Part shown: in pieces, positions 3,348 through 60,050 of the stretch
Numbering within the stretch: position 1 is the stretch's first letter
How the letters are laid out: the number at the start of each line of letters is the position of its first letter
Origin: Eledone cirrhosa
Lineage: Eukaryota
Direction of reading: 5' to 3'
Assembly (NCBI GenBank): GCA_964016885.1
Contig: OZ024748.1
Location: 41,974,001-42,038,000 of the forward strand
DNA: 64,000 nt
Program-made: the position numbers and the translations under genes
Notes under the pieces: model-generated
The model's input: only the letters and a program-made list of their open reading frames with translations
Told to the model about the DNA's origin: nothing
Database searches by the model: none

Positions 3348-3378
3348 ATATATTTGGAAACTCTGCTTCGTAGAATCA

Positions 3379-12560: not shown

Positions 12561-12647
12561 ATTCCTAACTTTTCAAATGTAGCAGCATTTGGTTTGCGTA
12601 GATTGTTGACAAAAAACTCAAGTTTGAACGATGATGGATTTGTGGCT
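12561..12647 (-). CDS. VIRMA: Virilizer/VIRMA coding exon 3
   Basis: ttttcag|A GCC ACA AAT...GGA AT|gtaagt; 87 nt, phase 2 to phase 2; (G)ATNPSSFKLEFFVNNLRKPNAATFEKLG matches the VIR_N domain. Confidence 0.93.
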
Positions 12648-12750
12648 CTGAAAATGGAAGAAAAATTACAATTTATCATTGTTGTTGTTTTTAAATTACT
12701 ACAGAAAAAATATATAAGCATCCATCTTTTCAATATATTTCCTACATTAC

Positions 12751-12869
12751 AGTGTGTTTGTGTGTGATGATGATATGTATTTGTTTGTGTGTGTGTGATG
12801 ATGATATATGTGAGTGTTTGTGTTTGATGATGATGTGAGTGTTTGTGTGTGATGATGATGTGCGAGTGT

Positions 12870-12921
<52 letters not shown>

Positions 12922-12931
12922 CAGTGTGTTG

Positions 12932-12969
<38 letters not shown>

Positions 12970-13052
12970 GTATATATATATGTCAGTGTGTGTGTGATGA
13001 TATATATATATATATGAGTGTGTGTTTGTGTGTGATGATGATGTGCGAGTGT

Positions 13053-13125
<73 letters not shown>

Positions 13126-13136
13126 AGTGTGTGTTG

Positions 13137-13169
<33 letters not shown>

Positions 13170-13271
13170 TATGTGTCAGTGTGTGTGTGTGATGATATAT
13201 ATATGAGTGTGTGTTTGTGTGTGATGATGATACATGTTTGTGTGTGATGGAGTGTGAGTGTTCATGTGATG

Positions 13272-13302
<31 letters not shown>

Positions 13303-13370
13303 ATGATATATGTGTTTGCGTGTGATATATATATATATGTGTGTGTGAGTTTGTGTGTGATGATGATAGA
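12751..13370. repeat. Compound (TG)n/(TA)n/(TGA)n microsatellite
   Basis: Directly visible low-complexity tract. Confidence 0.9.
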
Positions 13371-13502
13371 CATTAAAGGCATACACCAACATATTTACAG
13401 CCCAACATTAACATGGGGAGGTATGTATGGTGTGAGTGGATGGGGTGTCGGAGTGTGTATGGGTGCATGCGTGGTGGGTGGGTGTGTCTGTGCATATGTG
13501 TT

Positions 13503-13607
13503 GAGCAAGACAAGGTCAGCCGACCAGACACTGCTCACAACAGGACAACCCGTCTAACCCATGCTAGCGTAGAAGAATGGACGTAAAATGGTGATGATGA
13601 TGATGAT
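13503..13607 (+). mobile_element. RTE 3'-tail fragment
   Basis: Matches 3234-3347 (GGTCAGCCGACCAGACACTG...CATGCTAGCG...(GAT)n). Confidence 0.85.
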
Positions 13608-13612
13608 ATATA

Positions 13613-14470
13613 ATCATCATCACTGTTTTACGGCTATTTCTCCATGCTACCATGGGTTAGACGGGTTGTCTTGTTGTGAGAAATTCCAGGTCAGGTGACC
13701 ATGTCTTGCTCGTACAGAACTGATTTTGGCTTGGTTTCTACAGCTGGATGCCCTTCCTAACACCAACCACATTTAGTGTGGACTGGGTGCTTTTTGGCGT
13801 GACATCCACACAACCACTTTACAGTGTGGACTGGGTGCTTTTTGGCGTGACATCCACACAACCACTTTACAGTGTGGACTGGGTGCTTTTTGGCGTGGCA
13901 CCCACACAACCACATTTAGTGTGGAATGGGTGCTTTTTGGCGTGACATCCACACAACCACTTTACAGTTTGGACTGGGTGCTTTTTGGCGTGACACCCAC
14001 ACAACCACTTTACAGTGTGGACTGGGTGCTTTTTGGCGTGGCACCCACACAACCATATTTAGTGTGGAATGGGTGCTTTTTGGCGTGACACCCACACAAC
14101 CACTTTACAGTGTGGACTGGGTGCTTTTTGGCGTGGCACCCACACAACCACATTTAGTGTGGACTGGGTGCTTTTTGGCGTGACATCCACACAACCACTT
14201 TACAGTTTGGACTGGGTGCTTTTTGGCGTGGCACCCACACAACCACATTTAGTGTGACACCCACACAACCACATTTAGTGTGGACTGGGTGCTTTTAGGC
14301 GTGACACCCACACAACCACATTTAGTGTGGACTGGGTGCTTTTTGGTGTGACACCCACACAACCACATTTAGTGTGGACTGGGTGCTTTTTGGCGTGACA
14401 CCCACACAACCACTTTACAGTGTGGACCGGGTGCTTTTTGGCGTGACACCCACACAGCCACTTTAAAGTG
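13613..14470 (-). mobile_element. RTE 3'-UTR fragment whose internal 48-bp unit is amplified
   Basis: Reverse complement of the RTE 3' UTR from the (GAT)n tail through GGAAGGGCATCCAGCTGTAGAAA, continuing into tandem units. Confidence 0.85.
13765..14470. repeat. Minisatellite, ~15 x 47-48 bp
   Basis: Unit GTGGACTGGGTGCTTTTTGGCGTGACACCCACACAACCACTTTACAGT. Confidence 0.92.
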
Positions 14471-14684
14471 GTGTATAGTTAATGTAGAATACATTAATAT
14501 TGCATTAAACACTATATATGTGTGTAAAATATATATATATATTGTGATAAATAAATCAATAAATTGATAAATTAAAAGCCTTGAATAAAACACCTTTTAG
14601 GAAACATCTGGTGGTATGTTCCCAAGCCACATCTCATACAGGTTATTCTAACTTACAAGATAATATTTATTGCTCTATATTGTT

Positions 14685-15022
14685 AAATTTGCTGTACTCA
14701 GGGCTGTAAAGGGATGGGCTCTGCCAGGCTTAAAATGCTCAAGAAACGCCATATATCAATGTGGCACCCCAACGACTCTATCAGGAGTTACGGAATTATT
14801 CATAACAATTTGTAATTTAGGCTCAAGACCAGCAATTTGTGAGGGAAGGAGGAGGGGGGAAAGTCAATTAAGTTAACCCCAGTACTTGACTGGTATGTAG
14901 TACATGGTACTTTATTTTATCAACTTCAGAAAGGGCAAAAGGCAAAGTTGACATATGGCATTTCTTGGGTATTTCAAGCCTGGCGGAGCCAATTCCTCTC
15001 CAGGTCTGAGTACAGCAGATTT
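14685..15022. repeat. 75-bp imperfect inverted repeat pair (14685-14759 / 14948-15022) around a SINE fragment
   Basis: AAATTTGCTGTACTCAG..GCCAGGCTTAAAATGCTCAAGAAACGCCATATATCAA aligns end to end with the reverse complement of 14948-15022. Confidence 0.8.
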
Positions 15023-15107
15023 CTTCCAGAGAAAGATAGAAAGTGAGAGAGAGGAAATGAGAAAGAGATATAGAGGAAGAATCGACCCCAGTACTAGACT
15101 TGTACGA

Positions 15108-15889
15108 TTCAGGGAGCTACTGCCACTGCTAGCTGCAAAAGGCTTTTCCCTCAAAATGAAAGGCAGACTGTATGATGTGTGTATACAAACAGCAATGTTA
15201 CATGGTAGTGAGACCTGGCGCTGTCTGTAGAAGACTTGCGTAGATTAGAAAGAAACGAAGCCTGCATGCTCCGATGGATGTGTAATAGTAATATACGCGA
15301 ATGGCAAAGCATAAATGAATTGAGAGAGAGACTGAGCATAAGAGGAATCAAATGCTGTGTGCAGGAGAGGCGGTTGCGTTGGTATGGACATGTAATGCGT
15401 ATGAAGGATGACAGCTGCATAAAAAGGTGCAGAGCACTAGAAGTCGATGGAAACCGCGGATTTGGGAGACCCAAGAAGACCTAGGATGAGGTGATAAAAG
15501 CCGACCTTACCCAATTACACCTCTCAAAGACAATGACACACGACCGTGACCTCTGGCGTCACGCAGTAATACAGAAGACTCGACCCCCCACGGGTACAAG
15601 CCGAAGCTGAAGTATATAGACAATATGACCCCATACCCTCCCACTGCAAAGTGGTCGTGGAGGTGCCACGGAAAAAAAGCACCCAGCACTCACTGTAAAT
15701 GAGGTTGGTGTTAGGAAGGGCATCCAGCTGTAGAAATCAAGCCAGAATCAGTTCCCGTATGATTGCTCATATGGGAACTGATTCTGGCTTGATTTCTACA
15801 TGGTCAGCCGACCGGACACTACCTACAACAGGACAACCTGTCTAACCCATGCTAGCGTGGAAGAACGAACGTAAAACGATGATGATGAT
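15108..15889 (+). mobile_element. 5'-truncated copy of the same RTE family as 1-3347
   Basis: High identity to ~2560-3347 (FRELLPLL..RLRWYGHVMRM), with a frameshift and a stop, 3' UTR and (GAT)n tail. Confidence 0.92.
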
Positions 15890-16060
15890 ATATATATATA
15901 TATATATATATAGTAATAATAATAAATGTGAAGAATGAAATCCAAAGCGGGCTCGATAAGGAAAAATATATATCAAATATATAACACTAGAGCAAATATT
16001 TATTAAAATAACAGATTAAAGTTTAAGCAAAGAATCGCTGCTTTCACCCTTAACAGGATC

Positions 16061-16266
16061 TTCTGGAAAGATAGAGTGAGAGAGAGGGAAGTGAAAAAAA
16101 TATAGCGGAAGAATCGACCTCAGTACATTACTGGTACTTTATTTTATCGACCTCGTAAGGATGAAAGGCAAAGTTAACCTCGGCGAGATTTGAACTCAGA
16201 GAGTTGCAACAAATACCATAAAGCATTCTTATCCACCATTCTAACGACTCTGCCAATTAGCTGCCT
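16061..16266 (-). mobile_element. tRNA-derived SINE
   Basis: Minus strand TTGGCAGAGTCGTTAGA (A-box-like), GAGTTCAAATC (B-box), body TTTGCCTTTCATCCTT..GTCGATAAAATAAAGTACCAG; same family as 18815-19012. Confidence 0.8.
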
Positions 16267-17164
16267 ATAAATTGATATGTAAGTAGCTACGGTAGCTTGA
16301 GTGTGTTTTCATGCAGAGACACTAAGGTTGTTGAAAGCACTAATAATTAATATATAACAGCAACTAACATTCCCAAATAATTTTCCCATAATAAAATGAA
16401 CTTTAGTAAATGTAAGTAATAAAAAAAATGTCAAAGGTTATTTTGAAATTGCCAACATATTACATATTGTGCAGAAAGTGGAACAATTTAGTAGCCAATT
16501 ATTTTAGAATTTTAACAAACTTTAATTCTACTTTTATTATCACTGTCATTATTGTTTTTTTTATGTCCGTCTGCCCGTCTTACATGTTGGCATGAGTCGG
16601 ATGGGGTCACTGTGGTCTGAGTCAGTTTTTATTCAAAGTTACTAACCATCTAGATAGTTTGGAGAACTATGTCTAATTCACACATTCCACTCTCAAATAG
16701 TTTTGAAAGCAGGATGTCATTTCTAACAGCAACCAGTTTACAGAGTGTACTGGGTGCATTTTATCATAGCACCAACACTAGAGAAGTTGTCGCCTGCAAG
16801 ATTAAAGAGACTTTTCTACTCTATATTGTCTCCATTCTTTCAAGACAGTGAAAGAGGAAAGACTATGAGTCTGAATGTGATAGGATGTCAATGGCAGGAG
16901 TAAAGGAAGAGAGACAGTGATAGATATTTGTTTGTTATTGGTTGGAAGTTGAAGAGAAAACAGCATGAGCCGCTTGATAGGATGGCTATGAAGATGTGTC
17001 ATGGTAAAGAGGGAGCGCTGGAGTGATGGGCAATTGTGAGAGTGATAGATGTCAACAAAGAGTGACAAGGGACAGAATGATGGTTAACAGCAGAAGGTGA
17101 GAATATGTACAGATCTAATGCCCTCGTTACACAATGTAAGAATTAGAATAAGTAATAGAGAAGG

Positions 17165-17442
17165 GATTGAAGGCACAAGTCCAGGCAAGGTTGTTTGTGG
17201 AAGACCAGCAGTCACCCATACATACCTGTCTCCCCTCGCCACGCCATCGATGTTGTCCAAGGTAAAGGCAATGACCAATACTGTTTGACACCAGTGACGT
17301 CACAACTCATTTCTACAGCTGAGTAAACTGGAGCAACGTGAAAATAAAGTGTCTTGCTCAAGGATACATTGCATCACTCGATCCGAGAATCAAACTCACA
17401 ACCTATCGATTGCAAGCCCACTGTTCTAACCACTAAGCCATG
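17165..17442 (-). mobile_element. tRNA-derived SINE, second family
   Basis: Minus strand CATGGCTTAGTGGTTAG (A-box), GAGTTTGATTC (B-box-like), conserved core CCTTGAGCAAGACACTT. Confidence 0.8.
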
Positions 17443-17483
17443 GTATTTGTCATCTCCGTCATAAGATTCAGCTTGTCTTCAAC

Positions 17484-18432
17484 TGGTTAAGGTGGTACAG
17501 ACATGGCTGTGTGGTTAAGGTGGAGGTACAGACATGGCTGTGTGGTTAAGGTGGAGGTACAGACATGGCTGTGTGGTTAAGGTGGTGGTAGACATGGATG
17601 TGTGGTTAAGGTGGTGGTAGACATGGTTGTGTGGTTAAGGTGGTACAGACATGGCTCTGTGGTTAAGGTGGAGGTACAGACATGGCTGTGTGGTTAAGGT
17701 GGTGGTAGACATGGATGTGTGGTTAAGGTGGTGGTAGACATGGCTGTGTGGTTAAGGTGGTACAGACATGGCTGTGTGGTTAAGGTGGAGGTACAGACAT
17801 GGCTGTGTGGTTAAGGTGGTGGTAGACATGGATGTGTGGTTAAGGTGGTGGTAGACATGGCTGTGTGGTTAAGGTGATACAGACATGGCTGTGTGGTTAA
17901 GGTGGAGGTACAGACATGGCTGTGTGGTTAAGGTGGAGGTACAGACATGGCTGTGTGGTTAAGGTGGTGGTAGACATGGTTGTGTGGTTAAGGTGGTACA
18001 GACATGGCTGTGTGGTTAAGGTGGAGGTACAGACATGGCTGTGTGGTTAAGGTGGTGGTAGACATGGTTGTGTGGTTAAGGTGGTGGTAGACATGGTTGT
18101 GTGGTTAAGGTGGCACAGACATGGCTCTGTGGTTAAGGTGGAGGTACAGACATGGCTGTGTGGTTAAGGTGGTGGTAGACATGGCTGTGTGGTTAATGAG
18201 GTACAGGTATGGCTGTGTGGTTAAGCTGGTACAGACATGGCTGTGTGGTTAAGGTGGAGGTACAGACATGGCTGTGTGGTTAAGGTGGAGGTACAGACAT
18301 GGCTGTGTGGTTAAATGGTGGTAGACATGGCTGTGTGGTTATGGTGATACAGACATGGCTGTGTGGTTAATGAGGTACAGACATGGCTGTGTGGTTAATG
18401 AGGTACAGGTGTGGCTGAGTGGTTATGGTGGT
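17484..18432. repeat. Minisatellite, ~32 x 28-31 bp, containing a Pol III A-box-like motif
   Basis: Unit GGTACAGACATGGCTGTGTGGTTAAGGT(GGA), with 28/29/31-bp variants. Confidence 0.92.
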
Positions 18433-18472
18433 AAAGAGATTACAGAAATTAAGGAAATATTTTGAAACCTAC

Positions 18473-18585
18473 CCAAGACGATTACCTCCGGGGACTTCAG
18501 CTTGTACTTTGGTACCAAGTGGAACAACATGGACTTCATGAAGAATTGCTGGACGAGGAAACTTCACAAGATCGAGATTTAGTTC
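18473..18585 (-). CDS. VIRMA: Virilizer/VIRMA coding exon 2
   Basis: ttaactctgttatttcag|GAA CTA AAT...CTT GG|gtaggt; 113 nt, phase 0 to phase 2; ELNLDLVKFPRPAILHEVHVVPLGTKVQAEVPGGNRLG. Confidence 0.93.
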
Positions 18586-18617
18586 CTGAAATAACAGAGT
18601 TAACGGAATCAATGTTG

Positions 18618-18812
18618 TTATTATTATTATTATTATTATTATTTCCATTATTATTTTTATTGCACATCATTACTGCTTTACCTTGGGTATGTGCAGTGTA
18701 GTTTTTGCTGATGTTGTTTCTATTGTATTGATAGTACTTTTCGTAATATGTGTGCAGTGCCTAGTAGTGCTATCTTTTGTATACTGTATATATTGGTCTG
18801 TGTGTTTAGTAC
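18618..18812 (-). mobile_element. 3' end of an R4/Dong-like RLE LINE ending in (TAA)n
   Basis: Minus strand encodes NIYSIQKIALLGTAHILRKVLSIQ*, homologous to the end of the 61167-61375 fragment; short UTR, then (TAA)n. Confidence 0.8.
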
Positions 18813-18814
18813 TA

Positions 18815-19012
18815 AAGGTGGTGGATTGGCAGAATCGTTAGAGCGTCAGACACCATGCTTTGCAGCATAGAGTTATGGCCCTTTATGTTCTGAGTTCAAA
18901 TCCCGCCGATGTTAACTTTGCCTTTCATCCTTATGGGGGTCGATAAAATAAAGTACCAGTAATGCACTGGGGTAATTGCTGGCCTTGTGCCAAAAGTAGA
19001 AATAATTATTAT
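18815..19012 (+). mobile_element. tRNA-derived SINE
   Basis: GGTGGATTGGCAGAATCGTTAG (A-box), GAGTTCAAATCC (B-box), family body, (ATT)n-like end. Confidence 0.82.
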
Positions 19013-19030
19013 TTCTATTATTCATACTAA

Positions 19031-22000
19031 GGTGTAACAACCAACACCCTAGCTACTCTGAAGTACAAGTGGTGTAACAACCAACACTCTAGCTACTCTG
19101 AAGTACAAGTGGTGTCACAACCAACATGCTAGCTACCCTGAAGTACAAGTGGTGTAACAACCAACATGCTAGCTACCCTGAAGTACAAGTGGTGTCACAA
19201 CCAACATGCTAGCTACCCTGAAGTACAAGTGGTGTCACAACCAACATACTAGCTACTCTGAAGTACAAGTGGTGTCACAACCAACACTCTAGCTACTCTG
19301 AAGTACAAGTGGTGTCACAACCAACATGCTAGCTACCCTGAAGTACAAGTGGTGTCACAACCAACATGCTAGCTACTCTGAAGTACAAATGGTGTAACAA
19401 CCAACATGCTAGCTACCCTGAAGTACAAGTGGTGTAACAACCAACATGCTAGCTACCCTGAAGTACAAATGGTGTCACAACCAGCATGCTAGCTACCCTG
19501 AAGTACAAGTGGTGTAACAACCAACATGCTAGCTACCCTGAAGTACAAGTGGTGTAACAACCAACATGCTAGCTACCCTGAAGTACAAATGGTGTAACAA
19601 CCAACATGCTAGCTACCCTGAAGTACAAATGGTGTAACAACCAACATGCTAGCTACTCTGAAGTACAAATGGTGTAACAACCAACATGCTAGCTACTCTG
19701 AAGTACAAGTGGTGTAACAACCAACATGCTAGCTACCCTGAAGTACAAATGGTGTAACAACCAACATGCTAGCTACTCTGAAGTACAAGTGGTGTCACAA
19801 CCAACATGCTAGCTACCCTGAAGTACAAGTGGTGTAACAACCAACATGCTAGCTACCCTGACGTACAAGTGGTGTCACAACCAACATGCTAGCTACCCTG
19901 AAGTACAAATGGTGCAACAACCAACATGCTAGCTATTCTGAAGTACAAATGGTGTAACAACCAACATGCTAGCTACCCTGAAGTACAAGTGGTGTAACAA
20001 CCAACATGCTAGCTACCCTGAAGTACAAGTGGTGTAACAACCAACATGCTAGCTACCCTGAAGTACAAGTGGTGTAACAACCAACATGCTAGCTACCCTG
20101 AAGTACAAGTGGTGTTACAACCAACACTCTAGCTACCCTGAAGTACAAGTGGTGTAACAACCAACATGCTAGCTACTCTGAAGTACAAGTGGTGTAACAA
20201 CCAACATGCTAGCTACCCTGAAGTACAAATGGTGTAACAACCAACACTCTAGCTACCCTGAAGTACAAATGGTGTAACAACCAACACCCTAGCTACTCTG
20301 AAGTACAAATGGTGTAACAACCAACATGCTAGCTACCCTGAAGTACAAATGGTGTAACAACCAACACTCTAGCTACTCTGAAGTACAAATGGTGTAACAA
20401 CCAACATGCTAGCTACCCTGAAGTACAAGTGGTGTAACAACCAACACTCTAGCTACTCTGAAGTACAAGTGGTGTAACAACCAACATGCTAGCTACTCTG
20501 AAGTACAAGTGGTGTAACAACCAACATGCTAGCTACCCTGAAGTACAAATGGTGTAACAACCAACACTCTAGCTACTCTGAAGTACAAATGGTGTAACAA
20601 CCAACATGCTAGCTACCCTGAAGTACAAATGGTGTAACAACCAACATGCTAGCTACCCTGAAGTACAAATGGTGTAACAACCAACATGCTAGCTACTCTG
20701 AAGTACAAGTGGTGTAACAACTAACATGCTAGCTACTCTGAAGTACAAATGGTGTAACAACCAACATGCTAGCTACCCTGAAGTACAAATGGTGTAACAA
20801 CCAACACTCTAGCTACTCTGAAGTACAAGTGGTGTAACAACCAACACTCTAGCTACCCTGAAGTACAAGTGGTGTAACAACCAACATGCTAGCTACTCTG
20901 AAGTACAAATGGTGTAACAACCAACATGCTAGCTACCCTGAAGTACAAATGGTGTAACAACCAACACTCTAGCTACTCTGAAGTACAAGTGGTGTAACAA
21001 CCAACACTCTAGCTACCCTGAAGTACAAGTGGTGTAACAACCAACACTCTAGCTACTCTGAAGTACAAGTGGTGTCACAACCAACATGCTAGCTACTCTG
21101 AAGTACAAATGGTGTAACAACCAACACTCTAGCTACTCTGAAGTACAAGTGGTGTAACAACCAACATGCTAGCTACCCTGAAGTACAAGTGGTGTAACAA
21201 CCAACATACTAGCTACCCTGAAGTACAAATGGTGTAACAACCAACATGCTAGCTACCCTGAAGTACAAGTGGTGTAACAACCAACATACTAGCTACCCTG
21301 AAGTACAAATGGTGTGACAACCAACACTCTAGCTACTCTGAAGTACAAGTGGTGTCACAACCAACATGCTAGCTACCCTGAAGTACAAGTGGTGTCACAA
21401 CCAACATGCTAGCTACTCTGAAGTACAAATGGTGTAACAACCAACATGCTAGCTACCCTGAAGTACAAGTGGTGTAACAACCAACATGCTAGCTACCCTG
21501 AAGTACAAATGGTGTCACAACCAGCATGCTAGCTACCCTGAAGTACAAGTGGTGTAACAACCAACATGCTAGCTACCCTGAAGTACAAGTGGTGTAACAA
21601 CCAACACTCTAGCTACCCTGAAGTACAAGTGGTGTAACAACCAACACTCTAGCTACTCTGAAGTACAAGTGGTGTCACAACCAACATGCTAGCTACTCTG
21701 AAGTACAAATGGTGTAACAACCAACACTCTAGCTACTCTGAAGTACAAGTGGTGTAACAACCAACATGCTAGCTACCCTGAAGTACAAGTGGTGTAACAA
21801 CCAACATACTAGCTACCCTGAAGTACAAATGGTGTAACAACCAACATGCTAGCTACCCTGAAGTACAAGTGGTGTAACAACCAACATGCTAGCTACTCTG
21901 AAGTACAAGTGGTGTCACAACCAACACTCTAGCTACTCTGAAGTACAAGTGGTGTCACAACCAACATGCTAGCTACCCTGAAGTACAAGTGGTGTCACAA

Positions 22001-34000: not shown

Positions 34001-35270
34001 CCAACACTCTAGCTACCCTGAAGTACAAATGGTGTAACAACCAACATGCTAGCTACCCTGAAGTACAAGTGGTGTAACAACCAACATGCTAGCTACCCTG
34101 AAGTACAAATGGTGTCACAACCAACATGCTAGCTACCCTGAAGTACAAATGGTGTCACAACCAACACCCTAGCTACTCTGAAGTACAAGTGGTGTAACCA
34201 CCAACACTCTAGCTACTCTGAAGTACAAGTGGTGTAACAACCAACATGCTAGCTACCCTGAAGTACAAATGGTGTAACAACCAACACTCTAGCTACCCTG
34301 AAGTACAAATGGTGTAACAACCAACATGCTAGCTACCCTGAAGTACAAATGGTGTAACAACCAACACTCTAGCTACCCTGAAGTACAAGTGGTGTAACAA
34401 CCAACATGCTAGCTACCCTGAAGTACAAATGGTGTAACAACCAACACTCTAGCTACCCTGAAGTACAAGTGGTGTAACAACCAACATGCTAGCTACCCTG
34501 AAGTACAAATGGTGTAACAACCAACACTCTAGCTACCCTGAAGTACAAATGGTGTAACAACCAACATGCTAGCTACCCTGAAGTACAAGTGGTGTAACAA
34601 CCAACATGCTAGCTACCCTGAAGTACAAATGGTGTCACAACCAACATGCTAGCTACCCTGAAGTACAAATGGTGTCACAACCAACACCCTAGCTACTCTG
34701 AAGTACAAGTGGTGTAACCACCAACACTCTAGCTACCCTGAAGTACAAGTGGTGTAACAACCAACATGCTAGCTACCCTGAAGTACAAATGGTGTCACAA
34801 CCAACATGCTAGCTACCCTGAAGTACAAATGGTGTCACAACCAACACCCTAGCTACTCTGAAGTACAAGTGGTGTAACAACCAACATGCTAGCTACCCTG
34901 AAGTACAAGTGGTGTAACAACCAACATGCTAGCTACCCTGAAGTACAAATGGTGTCACAACCAACATGCTAGCTACCCTGAAGTACAAATGGTATCACAA
35001 CCAACACCCTAGCTACTCTGAAGTACAAGTGGTGTAACAACCAACACTCTAGCTACTCTGAAGTACAAGTGGTGTCACAACCAACATGCTAGCTACCCTG
35101 AAGTACAAGTGGTGTAACAACTAACATGCTAGCTACTCTGAAGTACAAGTGGTGTAACAACCAACATGCTAGCTACCCTGAAGTACAAGTGGTGTAACAA
35201 CCAACACTCTAACTACTCTGAAGTAGAAGTGGTGTAACAACCAACACTCTAGCTACTCTGAAGTACAAGT
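19031..35270. repeat. Satellite, 406 x 40 bp, with no visible indel
   Basis: Consensus GGTGTAACAACCAACATGCTAGCTACCCTGAAGTACAAGT; 16240 bp = 406 x 40, phase kept throughout. Confidence 0.98.
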
Positions 35271-35286
35271 GCAAATTTAAATAGAG

Positions 35287-48400: not shown

Positions 48401-51400
48401 TATAGTCACACATTGTTGGTACTGGGATGGTGGGATATAGTCACATATTAGTACTGGGATGGTGGGATATAGTCACATATTAGTACTGGGATGGTGGGAT
48501 ATAGTCACACATTGTTGGTACTGGGATGGTGGGATATAGTCACATATTGGTACTGGGATGGTGGGATATAGTCACATATTGTTGGTACTGGGATGGTGGG
48601 ATATAGTCACATATTAGTACTGGGATGGTGGGATATAGTCACATATTAGTACTGGGATGGTGGGATATAGTCACACATTGTTGGTACTGGGATGGTGGGA
48701 TATAGTCACATATTGGTACTGGGATGGTGGGATATAGTCACATGTTGTTGGTACTGGGATGGTGCGATATAGTCACATATTGGTACTGCGATGGTGGGAT
48801 ATAGTCACATATTGGTACTGGGATGGTGGGATATAGTCACATATTAGTTCTGGGATGGTGGGATATAGTCACATATAGGTACTGGGATGGTGGGATATAG
48901 TCACATGTTGTTACTGGGATGGTGGGATATAGTCACATATTAGTACTGGGATGGTGGGATATAGTCACATATTGGTACTGGGATGGTGGGATATAGTCAC
49001 ATATTGGTACTGGGATGGTGGGATATAGTCACATGTTGGTACTGGGATGGTGGGATATAGTCACATATTAGTACTGGGATGGTGGGATATAGTCACATAT
49101 TGTTGGTGGGATGGTGGGATATAGTCACATATTGTTGGTGGGATATAGTCACATATTGTTGGTACTGGGATGGTGGGATATAGTCATATGTTGGTACTGG
49201 GATGGTGGGATATAGTCACATATTGGTACTGGGATGGTGGGATATAGTCACATATTGTTGGTACTGGGATGGTGGGATATAGTCACATATTAGTACTGGG
49301 ATGGTGGGATATAGTCACATATTAGTACTGGGATGGTGGGATATAGTCACACATTGTTGGTACTGGGATGGTGGGATATAGTCACATATTGGTACTGGGA
49401 TGGTGGGATATAGTCACATGTTGTTGGTACTGGGATGGTGCGATATAGTCACATATTGGTACTGCGATGGTGGGATATAGTCACATATTGGTACTGGGAT
49501 GGTGGGATATAGTCACATATTAGTTCTGGGATGGTGGGATATAGTCACATATAGGTACTGGGATGGTGGGATATAGTCACATGTTGTTACTGGGATGGTG
49601 GGATATAGTCACATATTAGTACTGGGATGGTGGGATATAGTCACATATTGGTACTGGGATGGTGGGATATAGTCACATATTGGTACTGGGATGGTGGGAT
49701 ATAGTCACATATTGTTGGTGGGATGGTGGGATATAGTCACATATTAGTACTGGGATGGTGGGATATAGTCACATATTGGTACTGGGATGGTGGGATATAG
49801 TCACATATTGGTACTGGGATGGTGGGATATAGTCACATATTGGTACTGGGATGGTGGGATATAGTCACATATTGTTGGTACTGGGATGGTGGGATATAGT
49901 CACATATTGTTGGTACTGGGATGGTGGGATATAGTCACATATTGGTACTGGGATGGTGGGATATAGTCACATATTAGTACTGGGATGGTGGGATATAGTC
50001 ACATATTGGTACTGGGATGGTGGGATATAGTCACATATTGGTACTGGGATGGTGGGATATAGTCACATATTGGTACTGGGATGGTGGGATATAGTCACAT
50101 ATTGTTGGTACTGGGATGGTGGGATATAGTCACATATTGTTGGTACTGGGATGGTGGGATATAGTCACATATTGGTACTGGGATGGTGGGATATAGTCAC
50201 ATATTAGTACTGGGATGGTGGGATATAGTCACATATTGGTACTGGGATGGTGGGATATAGTCACATATTGGTACTGGGATGGTGGGATATAGTCACATAT
50301 TGTTGGTACTGGGATGGTGGGATATAGTCACATATTGGTACTGGGATGGTGGGATATAGTCACATATTAGTACTGGGATGGTGGGATATAGTCACACATT
50401 GTTGGTACTGGGATGGTGGGATATAGTCACATATTAGTACTGGGATGGTGGGATATAGTCACATATTAGTACTGGGATGGTGGGATATAGTCACACATTG
50501 TTACTGGGATGGTGGGATATAGTCACATATTAGTACTGGGATGGTGGGATATAGTCACATATTGGTACTGGGATGGTGGGATATAGTCACATATTGGTAC
50601 TGGGATGGTGGGATATAGTCACATGTTGGTACTGGGATGGTGGGATATAGTCACATATTAGTACTGGGATGGTGGGATATAGTCACATATTGTTGGTGGG
50701 ATGGTGGGATATAGTCACATATTGTTGGTGGGATATAGTCACATATTGTTGGTACTGGGATGGTGGGATATAGTCATATGTTGGTACTGGGATGGTGGGA
50801 TATAGTCACATATTGGTACTGGGATGGTGGGATATAGTCACATATTGTTGGTACTGGGATGGTGGGATATAGTCACATGTTGGTACTGGGATGGTGGGAT
50901 ATAGTCACATGTTGGTACTGGGATGGTGGGATATAGTCACATGTTGGTACTGGGATGGTGGGATATAGTCACATGTTGGTACTGGGATGGTGGGATATAG
51001 TCACATATTGGTACTGGGATGGTGGGATATAGTCACATATTGGTACTGGGATGGTGGGATATAGTCACATATTGGTACTGGGATGGTGGGATATAGTCAC
51101 ATATTGTTGGTGGGATGGTGGGATATAGTCACATATTGGTACTGGGATGGTGGGATATAGTCACATGTTGGTACTGGGATGGTGGGATATAGTCACATAT
51201 TTGTACTGGGATGGTGGGATATAGTCACATATTGTTGGTGGGATGGTGGGATATAGTCACATATTAGTACTGGGATGGTGGGATATAGTCACATATTGGT
51301 ACTGGGATGGTGGGATATAGTCACATATTGGTACTGGGATGGTGGGATATAGTCACATATTGGTACTGGGATGGTGGGATATAGTCACATATTGGTACTG

Positions 51401-54400
51401 GGATGTTGGGATATAGTCACATGTTGTTGGTACTGGGATGGTGGGATATAGTCACATATTGGTACTGCGATGGTGGGATATAGTCACATATTGGTACTGG
51501 GATGGTGGGATATAGTCACATATTAGTTCTGGGATGGTGGGATATAGTCACATATTGGTACTGGGATGGTGGGATATAGTCACATGTTGTTACTGGGATG
51601 GTGGGATATAGTCACATATTAGTACTGGGATGGTGGGATATAGTCACATATTGGTACTGGGATGGTGGGATATAGTCACATATTGGTACTGGGATGGTGG
51701 GATATAGTCACATATTGGTACTGGGATGGTGGGATATAGTCACATATTAGTACTGGGATGGTGGGATATAGTCACATATTGTTGGTGGGATGGTGGGATA
51801 TAGTCACATATTGTTGGTACTGGGATGGTGGGATATAGTCACATGTTGGTACTGGGATGGTGGGATATAGTCACATGTTGGTACTGGGATGGTGGGATAT
51901 AGTCACATGTTGGTACTGGGATGGTGGGATATAGTCACATGTTGGTACTGGGATGGTGGGATATAGTCACATATAGTTGGTACTGGGATGGTGGGATATA
52001 GTCACATATTGGTACTGGGATGGTGGGATATAGTCACATATTGTTGGTACTGGGATGGTGGGATATAGTCACATGTTGGTACTGGGATGGTGGGATATAG
52101 TCACATATTGGTACTGGGAGGGTGGGATATAGTCACATATTGGTACTGGGATGGTGGGATATAGTCACATATTGTTGGTGGGATATAGTCTCATATTGGT
52201 ACTGGGATGGTGGGATATAGTCACATATTGGTACTGGGATGGTGATATATAGTCACATATTGTTGGTACTGGGATGGTGGGATATAGTCACATATTGGTA
52301 CTGGGATGGTGGGATATAGTCACATATTGGTACTGGGATGGTGGGATATAGTCACATATTAGTACTGGGATGGTGGGATATAGTCACATATTAGTACTGG
52401 GATGGTGGGATATAGTCACATATTAGTACTGGGATGGTGGGATATAGTCACATATTGGTACTGGGATGGTGGGATATAGTCACATGTTGGTACTGGGAGG
52501 GTGGGATATAGTCACATATTGTTTGTACTGGGATGGTGGGATATAGTCACATATTAGTACTGGGATGGTGGGATATAGTCACATATTAGTACTGGGATGG
52601 TGGGATATAGTCACATATTAGTACTGGGATGGTGGGATATAGTCACATATTGGTACTGGGATGGTGGGATATAGTCACATGTTGGTACTGGGAGGGTGGG
52701 ATATAGTCACATATTGTTTGTACTGGGATGGTGGGATATAGTCACATATTGTTGGTGGGATGGTGGGATATAGTCACATGTTGGTACTGGGATGGTGGGA
52801 TATAGTCACATATTGTTGGTACTGGGATGGTGGGATATAGTCACATATTGGTACTGGGATGGTGGGATATAGTCACATATTGGTACTGGGAGGGTGGGAT
52901 ATAGTCACATATTAGTACTGGGATGGTGGGATATAGTCACATATTGGTACTGGGAGGGTGGGATATAGTCACATATTGGAACTGGGATGGTGGGATATAG
53001 TCACATGTTGGTACTGGGATGGTGGGATATAGTCACATATTGTTGGTACTGGGATGGTGGGATATAGTCACATATTGGTACTGGGATGGTGGGATATAGT
53101 CACATATTAGTACTGGGATGGTGGGATATAGTCACATATTAGTACTGGGATGGTGGGATATAGTCACATATTAGTACTGGGATGGTGGGATATAGTCACA
53201 TATTGGTACTGGGATGGTGGGATATAGTCACATATTAGTACTGGGATGGTGGGATATAGTCACATGTTGGTACTGGGAGGGTGGGATATAGTCACATATT
53301 GTTGGTACTGGGATGGTGGGATATAGTCACATATTGTTGGTGGGATGGTGGGATATAGTCACATATTGTTGGTGGGATGGTGGGATATAGTCACATATTA
53401 GTACTGGGATGGTGGGATATAGTCACATATTGTTGGTGGGATGGTGGGATATAGTCACATATTGTTGGTGGGATGGTGGGATATAGTCACATATTGTTGG
53501 TGGGATGGTGGGATATAGTCACATATTGGTACTGGGATGGTGGGATATAGTCACATATTGGTACTGGGATGGTGGGATATAGTCACATATTGTTGGTGGG
53601 ATGGTGGGATATAGTCACATATTGTTGGTGTGATGGTGGGATATAGTCACATATTAGTACTGGGATGGTGGGATATAGTCACATATTGGTACTGGGATGG
53701 TGGGATATAGTCACATATTGTTGGTACTGTGATGGTGGGATATAGTCACATATTGGTACTGGGATGGTGGGATATATTCACATATTGGTACTGGGATGGT
53801 GGGATATAGTCACATATTAGTACTGGGATGGTGGGATATAGTCACATATTGGTACTGGGATGGTGGGATATAGTCACATATTAGTACTGGGATGGTGGGA
53901 TATAGTCACATATTGTTGGTACTGGGATGGTGGGATATAGTCACATATTGGTACTGGGATGGTGGGATATAGTCACATATTAGTACTGGGATGGTGGGAT
54001 ATAGTCACATATTGTTGGTACTGGGATGGTGGGATATAGTCACATATTGGTACTGGGATGGTGGGATATAGTCACATATTGTTGGTGGGATGGTGGGATA
54101 TAGTCACATATTGGTACTGGGATGGTGGGATATAGTCACATATTGGTACTGGGATGGTGGGATATAGTCACATATTTGTACTGGGATGGTGGGATATAGT
54201 CACATATTGTTGGTGGGATGGTGGGATATAGTCACATATTGGTACTGGGATGGTGGGATATAGTCACATATTGGTACTGGGATGGTGGGATATAGTCACA
54301 TATTGGTACTGGGATGGTGGGATATAGTCACATATTGTTGGTACTGGGATGGTGGGATATAGTCACATATTGTTGGTACTGGGATGGTGGGATATAGTCA

Positions 54401-57400
54401 CATGTTGGTACTGGGATGGTGGGATATAGTCACATATTGTTGGTACTGGGATGGTGGGATATAGTCACATATTAATACTGGGATGGTGGGATATAGTCAC
54501 ATATTGGTACTGGGATGGTGGGATATAGTCACATATTGTTGGTACTGGGATGGTGGGATATAGTCACATATTGTTGGTACTGGGATGGTGGGATATAGTC
54601 ACATATTGGTACTGGGATGGTGGGATATAGTCACATATTAGTACTGGGATGGTGGGATATAGTCACATATTGGTACTGGGATGGTGGGATATAGTCACAT
54701 ATTGGTACTGGGATGGTGGGATATAGTCACATATTGTTGGTGGGATGGTGGGATATAGTCACATATTAGTACTGGGATGGTGGGATATAGTCACATATTG
54801 GTACTGGGATGGTGGGATATAGTCACATATTGGTACTGGGATGGTGGGATATAGTCACATATTGGTACTGGGATGGTGGGATATAGTCACATATTGTTGG
54901 TACTGGGATGGTAGGATATAGTCACATATTGTTGGTACTGGGATGGTGGGATATAGTCACATATTGGTACTGGGATGGTGGGATATAGTCACATATTAGT
55001 ACTGGGATGGTGGGATATAGTCACATATTGGTACTGGGATGGTGGGATATAGTCACATATTGGTACTGGGATGGTGGGATATAGTCACATATTGTTGGTG
55101 GGATGGTGGGATATAGTCACATATTGTTGGTACTGGGATGGTGGGATATAGTCACATATTGGTACTGGGATGGTGGGATATAGTCACATATTAGTACTGG
55201 GATGGTGGGATATAGTCACATATTGGTACTGGGATGGTGGGATATAGTCACATATTGGTACTGGGATGGTGGGATATAGTCACATATTGGTACTGGGATG
55301 GTGGGATATAGTCACATATTGTTGGTACTGGGATGGTGGGATATAGTCACATATTGGTACTGGGATGGTGGGATATAGTCACATATTAGTACTGGGATGG
55401 TGGGATATAGTCACACATTGTTGGTACTGGGATGGTGGGATATAGTCACATATTAGTACTGGGATGGTGGGATATAGTCACATATTAGTACTGGGATGGT
55501 GGGATATAGTCACACATTGTTGGTACTGGGATGGTGGGATATAGTCACATATTGGTACTGGGATGGTGGGATATAGTCACATATTGTTGGTACTGGGATG
55601 GTGGGATATAGTCACATATTAGTACTGGGATGGTGGGATATAGTCACATATTAGTACTGGGATGGTGGGATATAGTCACACATTGTTGGTACTGGGATGG
55701 TGGGATATAGTCACATATTGGTACTGGGATGGTGGGATATAGTCACATGTTGTTGGTACTGGGATGGTGCGATATAGTCACATATTGGTACTGCGATGGT
55801 GGGATATAGTCACATATTGGTACTGGGATGGTGGGATATAGTCACATATTAGTTCTGGGATGGTGGGATATAGTCACATATAGGTACTGGGATGGTGGGA
55901 TATAGTCACATGTTGTTACTGGGATGGTGGGATATAGTCACATATTAGTACTGGGATGGTGGGATATAGTCACATATTGGTACTGGGATGGTGGGATATA
56001 GTCACATATTGGTACTGGGATGGTGGGATATAGTCACATGTTGGTACTGGGATGGTGGGATATAGTCACATATTAGTACTGGGATGGTGGGATATAGTCA
56101 CATATTGTTGGTGGGATGGTGGGATATAGTCACATATTGTTGGTGGGATATAGTCACATATTGTTGGTACTGGGATGGTGGGATATAGTCATATGTTGGT
56201 ACTGGGATGGTGGGATATAGTCACATATTGGTACTGGGATGGTGGGATATAGTCACATATTGTTGGTACTGGGATGGTGGGATATAGTCACATATTAGTA
56301 CTGGGATGGTGGGATATAGTCACATATTAGTACTGGGATGGTGGGATATAGTCACACATTGTTGGTACTGGGATGGTGGGATATAGTCACATATTGGTAC
56401 TGGGATGGTGGGATATAGTCACATGTTGTTGGTACTGGGATGGTGCGATATAGTCACATATTGGTACTGCGATGGTGGGATATAGTCACATATTGGTACT
56501 GGGATGGTGGGATATAGTCACATATTAGTTCTGGGATGGTGGGATATAGTCACATATAGGTACTGGGATGGTGGGATATAGTCACATGTTGTTACTGGGA
56601 TGGTGGGATATAGTCACATATTAGTACTGGGATGGTGGGATATAGTCACATATTGGTACTGGGATGGTGGGATATAGTCACATATTGGTACTGGGATGGT
56701 GGGATATAGTCACATGTTGGTACTGGGATGGTGGGATATAGTCACATATTGGTACTGGGAGGGTGGGATATAGTCACATATTGGTACTGGGATGGTGGGA
56801 TATAGTCACATATTGTTGGTGGGATATAGTCACATATTGTTGGTGGGATATAGTCTCATATTGGTACTGGGATGGTGGGATATAGTCACATATTGGTACT
56901 GGGATGGTGGGATATAGTCACATATTGTTGGTACTGGGATGGTGGGATATAGTCACATATTGGTACTGGGATGGTGGGATATAGTCACATATTGGTACTG
57001 GGATGGTGGGATATAGTCACATATTAGTACTGGGATGGTGGGATATAGTCACATATTAGTACTGGGATGGTGGGATATAGTCACATATTAGTACTGGGAT
57101 GGTGGGATATAGTCACATATTGGTACTGGGATGGTGGGATATAGTCACATATTAGTACTGGGATGGTGGGATATAGTCACATGTTGGTACTGGGAGGGTG
57201 GGATATAGTCACATATTGTTTGTACTGGGATGGTGGGATATAGTCACATATTGTTGGTGGGATGGTGGGATATAGTCACATGTTGGTACTGGGATGGTGG
57301 GATATAGTCACATATTGTTGGTACTGGGATGGTGGGATATAGTCACATATTGGTACTGGGATGGTGGGATATAGTCACATATTGGTACTGGGAGGGTGGG

Positions 57401-59187
57401 ATATAGTCACATATTAGTACTGGGATGGTGGGATATAGTCACATATTAGTACTGGGATGGTGGGATATAGTCACATATTAGTACTGGGAGGGTGGGATAT
57501 AGTCACATATTGGAACTGGGATGGTGGGATATAGTCACATGTTGGTACTGGGATGGTGGGATATAGTCACATATTGTTGGTACTGGGATGGTGGGATATA
57601 GTCACATATTGGTACTGGGATGGTGGGATATAGTCACATATTGGTACTGGGATGGTGGGATATAGTCACATATTAGTACTGGGATGGTGGGATATAGTCA
57701 CATATTAGTACTGGGATGGTGGGATATAGTCACATATTAGTACTGGGATGGTGGGATATAGTCACATATTGGTACTGGGATGGTGGGATATAGTCACATA
57801 TTAGTACTGGGATGGTGGGATATAGTCACATGTTGGTACTGGGAGGGTGGGATATAGTCACATATTGTTGGTACTGGGATGGTGGGATATAGTCACATAT
57901 TGTTGGTGGGATGGTGGGATATAGTCACATATTGTTGGTGGGATGGTGGGATATAGTCACATATTAGTACTGGGATGGTGGGATATAGTCACATATTGGT
58001 ACTGGGATGGTGGGATATAGTCACATATTGGTACTGGGATGGTGGGATATAGTCACATATTGTTGGTGGGATGGTGGGATATAGTCACATATTGTTGGTG
58101 TGATGGTGGGATATAGTCACATATTAGTACTGGGATGGTGGGATATAGTCACATATTGGTACTGGGATGGTGGGATATAGTCACATATTGTTGGTACTGT
58201 GATGGTGGGATATAGTCACATATTGGTACTGGGATGGTGGGATATATTCACATATTGGTACTGGGATGGTGGGATATAGTCACATATTAGTACTGGGATG
58301 GTGGGATATAGTCACATATTGGTACTGGGATGGTGGGATATAGTCACATATTGTTGGTACTGGGATGGTGGGATATAGTCACATATTGGTACTGGGATGG
58401 TGGGATATAGTCACATATTAGTACTGGGATGGTGGGATATAGTCACATATTGTTGGTACTGGGATGGTGGGATATAGTCACATATTGGTACTGGGATGGT
58501 GGGATATAGTCACATATTAGTACTGGGATGGTGGGATATAGTCACATATTGTTGGTACTGGGATGGTGGGATATAGTCACATATTGGTACTGGGATGGTG
58601 GGATATAGTCACATATTGTTGGTGGGATGGTGGGATATAGTCACATATTGGTACTGGGATGGTGGGATATAGTCGCATATTGGTACTGGGATGGTGGGAT
58701 ATAGTCACATATTTGTACTGGGATGGTGGGATATAGTCACATATTGTTGGTGGGATGGTGGGATATAGTCACATATTGGTACTGGGATGGTGGGATATAG
58801 TCACATATTCGTACTGGGATGGTGGGATATAGTCACATATTGGTACTGGGATGGTGGGATATAGTCACATATTGGTACTGGGATGGTGGGATATAGTCAC
58901 TTATTGGTACTGGGATGGTGGGATATAGTCATATATTGTTGGTGGGATGGTGGGATATAGTCACATATTGGTACTGGGATGGTGGGATATAGTCATATAT
59001 TGGTACTGGGATGGTGGGATATAGTCACTTATTGGTACTGGGATGGTGGGATATAGTCATATATTGTTGGTGGGATGGTGGGATATAGTCACATATTGGT
59101 ACTGGGATGGTGGGATATAGTCACATATTGGTACTGGGAAGGTGGGATATAGTCACATATTGTTGGTGGGATATAGTCACATATTGT
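36492..59187. repeat. G-rich satellite, ~700 x 32 bp (24/32/35-bp variants)
   Basis: Consensus GGTACTGGGATGGTGGGATATAGTCACATATT over 22.7 kb. Confidence 0.98.
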
Positions 59188-59375
59188 CATCACCGGACAT
59201 AATGTCTTATGATATTTGATCCGGCTCTTTACGTTGAATTCATGTCATGTCGAGGGTCAACTTTGATGTTTGTCTTTCTAAGGTCGATAAAATAAAGCCC
59301 CAGTCAAATACTGGCAGTATTAATATCATCAATAGATTACTTTCTGACCTTGTGTCTACGTTAGAAATTATTATT
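59188..59375 (+). mobile_element. Decayed SINE body continuing directly from the 32-bp satellite
   Basis: CTCTTTACGTTGAATTCA..GTCAACTTTG..GGTCGATAAAATAAAG.CCCAGTCAAATACTGG..CCTTGTGTC..TAGAAATTATTATT aligns with the SINE at 18815-19012. Confidence 0.72.
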
Positions 59376-59431
59376 AGAAAGAATATTATGTATAAAATGT
59401 TGATTGTTTAAGATGTATTAGTTAATTGTGT

Positions 59432-59476
<45 letters not shown>

Positions 59477-59987
59477 TATATGTTTATGTTTACTTTTAAT
59501 ATTTCTGCTAAAATCTGTGAATTATTATTCTAAAATTCCTTTTAGTATAATATCAGAATAAAAGAAAAGTGTTATTTATTAGATAAATTATGTAATAGCT
59601 AGAAAAATGTTACAACTCGTCACATTCAAAACAAAAGAAAGCATGTTTCGTAAACTAGGTTACGTAAGATGTGTCAAATATTATGAATAGATTTTTAAAA
59701 ACATAATATATGATAGTTTTATTTTCGATTAAAATAATAATGTGTGTACGTCTAACAATAGATATTGTGGACGAAGAAATGAGATTAATAAATGTTCGGT
59801 GATTGATTTGAGAATGTTTAAATAAAGATTGTTAACTATACAACGTCTAATGGATTAAAACGATATATATATAATCGAATTTCTTTATTACTTTAAGAGA
59901 ACAAAGACATGCTACAGTATTAGAGGTAATAAATTTGATGTAATATCACAAACGAAGCTTTAAAATCAAACAAACATAAGATCATAC

Positions 59988-60050
59988 CTCAATATTTTCA
60001 TGAGAAAACGTATCAAAAAACAGCAACTCCACTTGCGTAGAATCAGCCAT
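59988..60050 (-). CDS. VIRMA: Virilizer/VIRMA coding exon 1 (start codon)
   Basis: tcaaaATGG context; MADSTQVELLFFDTFSHENIE|gtatga; 63 nt, phase 0. ELLFFDTFSH is the conserved Virilizer N-terminus. Confidence 0.93.

Follow-up and report, generated by a model that had tools for sequence, protein, structure and literature searches.

Among the genes of Drosophila pericentromeric heterochromatin, Ranbp16 and CG8578 are reported to have grown from 6.7 kb to ~100 kb and from 3.4 kb to ~137 kb, respectively (PMC7911463, PMC2211541). As these accounts describe them, they are ordinary genes under purifying selection that sit in a domain of roughly 80% repeats, in which only some introns, often the first, are inflated many-fold while the coding sequence is conserved, and in which the filler consists of transposon insertions. 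A second described system is TRACT, a 30-bp VNTR in an intron of human CACNA1C, where a single locus carries a tens-of-kb array with interspersed unit variants, and for which length alleles and effects on expression have been shown (PMC13131567, 10.1101/2025.09.15.676436). The Drosophila Y-loop genes kl-3, kl-5 and ORY are described as having short exons between introns that measure hundreds of kb to Mb, are filled with pentamer satellite, and are transcribed and spliced nonetheless (PMC6508621, PMC11207136).

Here we describe the single intact VIRMA gene of Eledone cirrhosa, which is spliced across a 41-kb intron consisting of 94% tandem repeats. Virilizer/VIRMA (KIAA1429), an RNA-methylation scaffold, binds WTAP in the METTL3/METTL14 m6A writer complex. 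The locus resembles the Drosophila heterochromatic genes in each of the respects listed above except the filler, which here is mostly tandem arrays with units of 20-70 bp, and the likeness is one of repeat content and of a conserved protein. With TRACT it shares a unit of 30-40 bp, a tens-of-kb intronic array and interspersed variants, yet unlike TRACT it has a pair of large arrays within a single intron and a total of 32 arrays over the gene, one of them from a dispersed family. These two systems are closer parallels than the Drosophila Y fertility genes, to which a sequence-only reading of this DNA had likened the locus: that comparison fails on scale, this intron measuring 41 kb where those of the fertility genes extend over hundreds of kb to Mb, and the units are minisatellite of 32-40 bp here and satellite of 5 bp there. 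We regard the locus as an extreme case of something already known.

The window analysed is a 64,000-nt stretch of contig OZ024748.1 (positions 41,974,001 to 42,038,000 of the forward strand), and feature positions below are those of the window. Three coding exons lie on its reverse strand: exon 1 (59988..60050, 63 nt), which begins at the ATG and ends in a phase-0 GT donor, exon 2 (18473..18585, 113 nt) and exon 3 (12561..12647, 87 nt). Their ends are GT-AG and they join in phases 0 and 2 into the peptide that the sequence-only reading had proposed, and both of the junctions it had offered for checking (59988>18585 and 18473>12647) are present in one 6,717-nt contig from a single run (X5, of a kind not on record) that joins exons 1, 2 and 3 exactly. 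This contig covers exon 2 exactly and has a 30-letter loose end on either side, one matching the end of exon 1 and the other the start of exon 3; the last 48 nt of exon 1, beyond a shared CT, correspond to its loose end. Contigs of three other runs (X4, X9 and X18) did not cover exon 2, which speaks neither for nor against the junctions. Intron 1 is consequently best called the first coding intron: a non-coding exon upstream of the ATG exon is possible, because 13 nt still separate the end of the contig from the ATG. Exon 4, which had been expected to the left of the window, lies 11 kb beyond its edge at C8:41962960-41962912, where it was recovered by a relaxed screen after a strict screen had missed it.

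The assignment to Virilizer/VIRMA, also proposed from the sequence, is borne out by a profile search in which exons 1, 2 and 3 match Pfam VIR_N (PF15912) in order, at profile positions 2-17 (E value 0.0075, the score of this 21-aa piece falling short of the curated cut-off), 19-54 (1.6e-9) and 56-83 (2e-9), with exon 5 accounting for positions 100-144. In a genome-wide profile search this locus is the sole match to VIR_N, with none elsewhere. The first three exons also align without gaps to residues 1-23, 24-60 and 62-89 of the Lottia Virilizer. Neither exon 2 nor a later exon had a match in a homologous-protein search (up to 2,000 residues), and a PDB sequence search with exon 2 as the query was likewise negative.

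Our model of the whole gene comprises 41 exons over 178.6 kb, with a 6,507-nt CDS that encodes 2,168 aa and contains no internal stops; all 40 introns are GT-AG, the exon borders past exon 3 being predictions of the model. Residues 89-2168 are 81% identical to Octopus bimaculoides Virilizer (UniRef100_A0A0L8HH29), the protein is collinear to the C-terminus with Lottia XP_009061409.1 and Lineus XP_064640162.1 at 38-62% identity, and matches fall at both ends of four named Virilizer homologues. It thus has the characteristics of its family, namely an N-terminal VIR_N domain, a length of about 2,000-2,200 aa and collinear homology to the C-terminus, and apart from a long Q-rich insert in common with O. 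bimaculoides we find no protein-level difference. The O. bimaculoides record is without exons 1-3 and begins at exon 4 after an unrelated leader, so the present model completes the octopod VIRMA N-terminus that is missing there, and provides an example of how short 5' exons can be lost behind arrays. At least five differences in exon 3 are listed from a second organism, and all five are synonymous third-position changes. Together with the spliced contig and the sole VIR_N locus, these differences indicate that the gene is expressed, spliced and functional rather than a pseudogene.

The first coding intron (18586..59987, reverse strand, GT-AG) is 41,402 nt long and absent from the spliced contig. 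Two arrays make up 94.0% of it and leave 2,465 nt outside them, in agreement with the extent and the satellite content first estimated from the sequence. The 40-mer minisatellite array (19031..35271) spans 16,241 nt and contains 406 copies, with 405 units of exactly 40 nt each and 53 unit variants; blocks of 2.7 and 5.8-6.0 kb are duplicated inside it. The 32-mer minisatellite array (36492..59187) spans 22,696 nt and contains ~700 units, mostly of 32 or 35 nt and in 55 variants, and internal blocks of 2.6 and 7.0 kb have been duplicated; it lies 863 nt from the ATG, close to the ~0.9 kb given before. A 1.2-kb spacer (35272..36491) separates the two and contains a LINE 3'-end fragment, a label that we infer from the resemblance of its translations to those of the LINE at window positions 1-3039. 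Both arrays are inside the spliced-out intron, and transcription and splicing of VIRMA must cross about 39 kb of repeats, as had been proposed. On the transcribed strand neither array contains a poly(A) hexamer, a GTRAG donor or a YAG-GT ratchet site, and recursive splicing through YAG-GT sites was discarded as a candidate with 0 sites across both arrays. The 40-mer array does hold 247 decoy acceptors and 31 decoy donors that score above the 10th percentile of VIRMA's own splice sites, giving 155 possible pseudo-exon pairs.

Array-filled introns recur along the gene. Across all VIRMA introns, 65% of the DNA is tandem repeat and 58% is long arrays, LINE and PIF1 fragments being a minor share, and we count 32 non-overlapping arrays whose units are mostly different. 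The median intron is 819 nt, five exceed 10 kb and intron 1 is the largest. Introns 12, 16 and 21 are 95-99% array, with 269, 151 and 193 nt left over, respectively. In intron 2 (12648..18472, reverse strand, 5,825 nt), dispersed repeats accompany a 31-mer array of 0.9 kb. The 5' half of intron 3 (1..12560, reverse strand; 23.6 kb for the whole intron) contains 3 kb of CAC/CAA array together with an antisense LINE and a fragment of a PIF1 helicase. When the arrays are compared by strand, poly(A) signals are richer on the sense strand in 2 arrays and on the other in 5, and GTRAG in 4 against 6, which is too weak for depletion in either case.

For comparison we used 39 housekeeping genes with 176 inter-exon gaps, all of them outside the C8 domain described below. 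The median gap is 1.6 kb, about 25 times shorter than intron 1; three gaps exceed 20 kb, and the only one above 41 kb spans missed exons. None of the 16 largest control gaps is more than 66% array. VIRMA is more extreme than all 39 genes, yet two of them do contain intronic arrays of 11-13 kb, a 13.2-kb 37-mer array in a gene for an RNA-polymerase largest subunit and an 11.6-kb 35-mer array in an adaptin-family gene. These genes, the equally array-filled introns 12, 16 and 21, and the ~7 Mb of surroundings that are about 79% array leave the framing of intron 1 as a special case in the sequence-only reading unsupported.

The two arrays of intron 1 differ in their distribution over the genome. 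All 126 exact matches to a 33-nt core of the 40-mer lie inside the intron-1 array and none in 186 other loci, although diverged copies could escape exact matching. The idea that both arrays are single-locus fails for the 32-mer, which belongs to a dispersed family of 32-, 35- and 43-mers that also forms arrays at no fewer than nine other places on seven contigs; these are 75-94% identical, reach ~59 kb and share no long flank. A 26-nt core of the 32-mer has 19 exact reverse matches, none of them within the 13 stretches examined, and the 450-nt flanks of the family revealed no shared carrier element, flank matches being ordinary dispersed repeats.

The surroundings of the gene are themselves rich in arrays. 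In 14 windows of 10 kb over C8:35.5-42.5 Mb, long arrays cover a mean of 79%, against 14% in 77 other grid windows, and an array of at least 8 kb is present in 9 of the 14 (with 8 different units) against 7 of the 77, a difference whose Fisher P of 2e-5 is only descriptive, because the edges of the domain were picked after seeing the data. Starting 25 kb past the VIRMA stop codon, 71-mer units form an array of about 125 kb. An ORF screen over the 100 kb upstream of VIRMA identified no neighbouring gene, and the regional effect discussed here refers to DNA windows rather than to genes nearby.

Because the surrounding domain is itself array-rich, we consider it probable that the VIRMA introns were inflated passively by minisatellite expansion, the gene being situated inside a multi-megabase satellite-rich domain of contig C8, and that they are not a special control device. 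Short seeds, some derived from dispersed repeats, may have duplicated, after which every array would have grown independently through slippage and unequal exchange. Such growth would be promoted across a whole region, as happens in DNA that is heterochromatic or recombines little. The intron-1 arrays may be tolerated because they lack poly(A) hexamers, YAG-GT sites and GTRAG donors on the transcribed strand, and the short exons would still be recognised by exon definition. At an assumed 1-3 kb/min, intron 1 would add about 14-40 min of transcription, a cost that selection likely barely sees.

Several alternative hypotheses may be weighed against passive inflation. The arrays could have arisen passively but by now control VIRMA output by way of their variable length or sequence, through delay, dosage or isoform choice, in the manner of CACNA1C TRACT. 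The 32-mer array does begin 0.8 kb after the exon-1 donor, and about 100 kb of arrays would prolong the synthesis of each transcript by an estimated 33-100 min under the same assumed rates. Moreover, in fibroblasts and testis long TRACT alleles (~24 kb) are reported to be associated with reduced expression (PMC13131567), and addition or removal of TRACT to alter activity-dependent transcription (10.1101/2025.09.15.676436). However, like arrays fill the whole domain and other genes, so that their presence needs no function, and a delay in a broadly expressed gene would be expected to shift timing and not the steady-state level. A regulatory role is consequently unlikely, if worth bearing in mind. 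We are slightly more doubtful of a broader proposal, in which multi-megabase gene-bearing domains of octopods would be patchworks of unrelated minisatellites, not transposons, and ~100 kb of length-variable VIRMA arrays would set transcription time and dosage and so tune m6A.

It is improbable, though less so than the two ideas that follow, that the assembler over-expanded or mis-joined the arrays and that the true intron is much shorter. Near-identical duplicated blocks do occur inside the arrays, and no read or contig was seen to span either one, the contigs considered being those placed on the exon 2-3 region. Nevertheless, the window and the 200 kb to its left are without any N, exact repeats inside the arrays reach at most 1,439 and 2,452 nt, and the duplicated blocks differ by substitutions and by gains and losses of units, which long accurate reads can resolve. 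The spliced contig agrees with the order and strand of the exons; a mis-join is therefore excluded, and an assembly error could concern length alone.

We see very little chance that VIRMA represents the Y-loop type of Drosophila intron gigantism, with a need for a dedicated programme of transcription and processing, a type marked by spermatocyte-specific loops and by the dedicated RNA-binding proteins Blanks and Heph. Intron 1 is satellite-filled and about 25 times as long as the median control gap, but the gene measures 179 kb and its intron 41 kb with units of 32-40 bp, whereas Y-loop genes are reported to exceed 4 Mb (PMC11207136), with (AATAT)n and (AAGAC)n repeats and ~90 h of transcription in spermatocytes (PMC6508621). 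Equally remote, and rejected, is the suggestion that the arrays serve autoregulation as an m6A substrate, through which DRACH units in the VIRMA pre-mRNA feed the writer back on its own scaffold, since the sense-strand excess of DRACH in the 32-mer (717 against 7) and in the intron-21 array (1,385 against 0) is countered by the 40-mer (130 against 282) and the 50-mer (211 against 429), arrays of the 32-mer family turn up at numerous unrelated sites, and the sense strand is favoured in 15 of 30 arrays (P = 1.0), which is no bias.

In terms of genome biology, the locus draws attention to a ~7-Mb domain in which mixed minisatellites surround at least one conserved gene; our literature search, which covered few subscription journals, found no description of such a domain in a cephalopod. 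An effect of array length on expression has a precedent in the published account of CACNA1C TRACT (PMC13131567). Should array length vary in Eledone and change VIRMA output, the locus would offer a natural test of intronic satellite length in a housekeeping gene. As a minor observation on the domain, a single 48-mer takes up both the 39.5-Mb and the 40.0-Mb window, which no more than hints at a very large array.

We recovered the three coding exons of a minus-strand Virilizer/VIRMA gene exactly where the sequence-only reading had placed them (exon 1, 60050-59988; exon 2, 18585-18473; exon 3, 12647-12561), with GT-AG ends, intron phases of 0 and 2 and a joined translation of 87 residues. Each exon separately matched the Pfam domain VIR_N, and profile order was kept (positions 2-17, 19-54 and 56-83). 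As exons 1-3 span residues 1-89 of the Lottia Virilizer without a missing block of residues, the ATG at 60050 is the start. Both proposed junctions (59988>18585 and 18473>12647) are present in a 6,717-nt contig assembled from sequencing run X5, which covers exon 2 end to end and whose two free ends, of which 30 letters apiece are printed, match the last part of exon 1 and the first part of exon 3; a contig from run X1 covers the same region unspliced. Since the X5 contig is spliced and a genome search found no processed VIRMA copy, we take X5 to be RNA. This splice evidence consists of one contig from one sample, X5 and X1 share a study code, and the contig falls 13 nt short of reaching the ATG, so that 'intron 1' denotes the first coding intron. 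In organism B (run X4), 5 of 5 listed exon 3 differences are synonymous third-position changes, among the 40 of 505 rows shown.

VIRMA is part of the m6A writer. In the 2,996 Mb searched, VIR_N occurs at this locus alone (three matches; 102 candidates scored). A late-exon query against protein representatives returned 32 proteins, the best being an Octopus bimaculoides Virilizer (UniRef100_A0A0L8HH29), which was used to model the gene on 200 kb fetched left of the window. This homology puts the animal among the octopods. The model has 41 exons (6,507 nt, 2,168 aa, no internal stops), GT-AG ends in 40 of 40 introns, 81% identity to the octopus protein and a span of 178.6 kb; exon borders past exon 3 are modelled, and two exons missing from the octopus record, together with a few alternative borders, were picked by phase and splice score. 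Exon 4, which had been expected left of the window, lies 11 kb beyond that edge at C8:41,962,960-41,962,912 (C8 being the same contig, on which the window occupies 41,974,001-42,038,000). The octopus record itself lacks exons 1-3 and starts at exon 4 after an unrelated 12-residue leader, and long repeat-filled 5' introns may also have broken that gene model.

Intron 1 (18586-59987) measures 41,402 nt in a window with an N count of 0, and Tandem Repeats Finder assigns 94.0% of it to a 16,241-nt 40-mer array (19031-35271) and a 32-mer array of ~22,700 nt (36492-59187), in agreement with the earlier estimate of about 94% satellite. With long arrays defined by a unit of at least 10 bp, a length of at least 500 bp and at least 8 copies, VIRMA introns have a median of 819 nt and total 172 kb, 58% of it in long arrays. 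Intron 12 is 95% array (a 4.8-kb 39-mer, with 269 nt remaining), intron 16 is 99% array (a 10.7-kb 50-mer; 151 nt) and intron 21 is 99% array (an 18.9-kb 39-mer; 193 nt). The gene carries 32 non-overlapping arrays of at least 300 bp with mostly different units, and we read these as many separate, independent inflations of small introns; some of the other arrays resemble dispersed repeats present in 14-31 of 112 background loci.

The earlier observation is thereby confirmed and extended, and its interpretation stands in part, without the likeness to Y-linked genes. The best reading, and a probable one, is that of an ordinary gene whose introns underwent passive, regional inflation. A first set of 79 10-kb windows on fixed grids (20 on C8 and 16 on the four largest contigs, hence not genome-proportional) contained arrays of at least 8 kb in nine windows, with nine different units, and had a mean long-array share of 16.5%, against 7% on the four largest contigs. 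The latter are 379-443 Mb long, many others being 30-137 Mb, and long arrays are scarcer in windows on them. With 20 further windows on C8, the interval C8:35.5-42.5 Mb showed a mean array share of 79% over 14 windows (12 new and two first-grid), and arrays of at least 8 kb occurred in 9 of these 14 versus 7 of the 77 other first-grid windows, domain edges having been set post hoc from the same window data. Eight new windows at C8 43-47.5 Mb, excluded from this comparison, were 0-20% array, and a first-grid window at 43.5 Mb held one 8.4-kb array. VIRMA (41.86-42.03 Mb) sits at the domain's right-hand edge: a 71/138-bp array of ~125 kb (C8:41705000-41829945; loci L026-L031 and L156-L159, sampled rather than read continuously) starts 25 kb beyond its stop codon, and the 100 kb upstream of its ATG are 14% array.

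The ~7-Mb domain (loci L167-L178, L073 and L074), which may outrank the VIRMA intron in interest, includes at least eight different units (24-71 bp, and one of 467 bp at 39.0 Mb). One 48-mer fills the windows at 39.5 and 40.0 Mb (L174, L175), 0.5 Mb apart, possibly as one very large array and a centromere candidate; VIRMA intron 5 carries a 1.4-kb array of it as well (C8:41956303-41957736), and short matches to it occur in many other loci.

As a control, a genome search with six Pfam families yielded 39 multi-hit genes with 176 gaps between consecutive hits, a set that drops single-hit and intronless loci, under-samples first introns and has 0 of 39 genes inside the C8 domain. The gaps, which are upper bounds given missed exons, have a median of 1.6 kb; three exceed 20 kb and one exceeds 41 kb (62.7 kb, with missed exons within). 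All 16 gaps of at least 9.9 kb were fetched (five as the first 10 kb only), and two contain arrays above 10 kb and a third 6.6 kb: the introns of an RNA-polymerase largest-subunit gene (L123-L128, C2:217.91-217.96 Mb) hold a 13.2-kb 37-mer array and another of 6.6 kb, and those of an adaptin-family gene (L136-L137, C4:77.27-77.29 Mb) hold an 11.6-kb 35-mer array. Array-filled introns are present in other housekeeping genes also, but VIRMA goes further than any of the 39 control genes.

The proposed likeness to Drosophila Y fertility genes fails on size. Y-loop genes are more than 4 Mb long, contain pentamer satellites in introns that range from hundreds of kb to Mb, and depend for ~90 h on Blanks and Heph (PMC6508621, PMC11207136), whereas VIRMA has a 41,402-nt intron in a 178.6-kb gene. 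The closest architecture is that of Drosophila pericentromeric heterochromatin genes, whose proteins are conserved and selected introns, often the first, enlarged 15-40-fold (PMC7911463, PMC2211541), although the filler there is transposons and in VIRMA tandem arrays. For octopuses, published work reports introns averaging 5.4 kb and a simple-repeat share of 14.7% in O. minor (PMC6279123) and mentions the octopus SINE expansion (PMC13218726); titles and abstract openings of mostly non-subscription literature yielded no description of VIRMA in octopods or of cephalopod introns filled with minisatellites.

We think it unlikely that array length regulates VIRMA, yet a dosage effect would have a precedent in TRACT, which is the closest array type: this 30-bp intronic VNTR of CACNA1C spans 3-30+ kb, and its long alleles accompany lower expression in two tissues (PMC13131567, 10.1101/2025.09.15.676436).

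At an assumed 1-3 kb/min, transcription would take 14-41 min for intron 1 and 1-3 h for the whole gene. The transcribed strand of both intron 1 arrays contains no AATAAA/ATTAAA, GTRAG or YAG-GT. Scored with matrices from the 40 VIRMA introns themselves, and counting only sites that exceed the 10th percentile of those introns' own scores, the 32-mer array offers neither donor nor acceptor and the 40-mer array 247 acceptors and 31 donors, the best acceptor scoring 8.1 versus 12.9 for that of exon 2. The exon join in the X5 contig is clean, and exon definition across a largely inert array is the simplest account of splicing. We also considered m6A autoregulation via the arrays; DRACH motifs number 717 sense and 7 on the other strand in the 32-mer array, but the sense strand is favoured in 15 of 30 arrays, and the idea was rejected as without support.

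Turning to how such passive inflation may have proceeded, the 40-mer array comprises 405 units of exactly 40 nt (53 variants), and the 32-mer array units of mainly 32 and 35 nt (55 variants). Both contain several-kb duplicated blocks diverged by substitutions and unit gains and losses, a pattern suggestive of growth by unequal exchange, and exact repeats within them reach at most 1,439 and 2,452 nt. That the array lengths are an assembly error is very improbable, over-expansion by the assembler being countered, as judged from the assembled sequence alone, by these diverged blocks and the shortness of the exact repeats. A 33-nt core of the 40-mer has 126 exact matches in the genome, every one of them inside the window, and the 40-mer had zero matches among 186 fetched loci. 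The 32-mer family has relatives at nine other places (on contigs C3, C4, C7, C8, C11, C17 and C22), with 75-94% identity and arrays of 0.6 kb to about 59 kb; because the only feature common to their flanks is a degenerate edge of 15-20 nt, a short dispersed seed probably gave rise to each array. At its start (L189 ~3670-3730, C4:93.95 Mb) the ~59-kb array, a 35-mer, has a short run of its units in inverted orientation, next to a LINE fragment. CpG is nearly absent from both intron 1 arrays (observed/expected 0.02).

Several neighbouring features were also recorded. An apparently intronless 494-aa open frame with CAP-Gly and leucine-rich repeats, which from this architecture we take to be TBCE-like, lies 4.6 kb beyond the VIRMA stop codon (L024:5367-6848; C8:41850848-41849367, minus). 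VIRMA intron 3 holds, antisense at window 1-3039 (plus strand), a LINE open frame of 1,012 aa that includes an endonuclease, a reverse transcriptase and an inserted PHD finger and looks recent, and at 3858-5166 (minus) a frameshifted PIF1-type helicase fragment, likely a Helitron remnant. Finally, a dispersed repeat of ~135 bp (window 60119-60263), found at 80-88% identity in at least 39 other places, sits 70-210 nt upstream of the VIRMA ATG, likely in the 5' UTR or core promoter.
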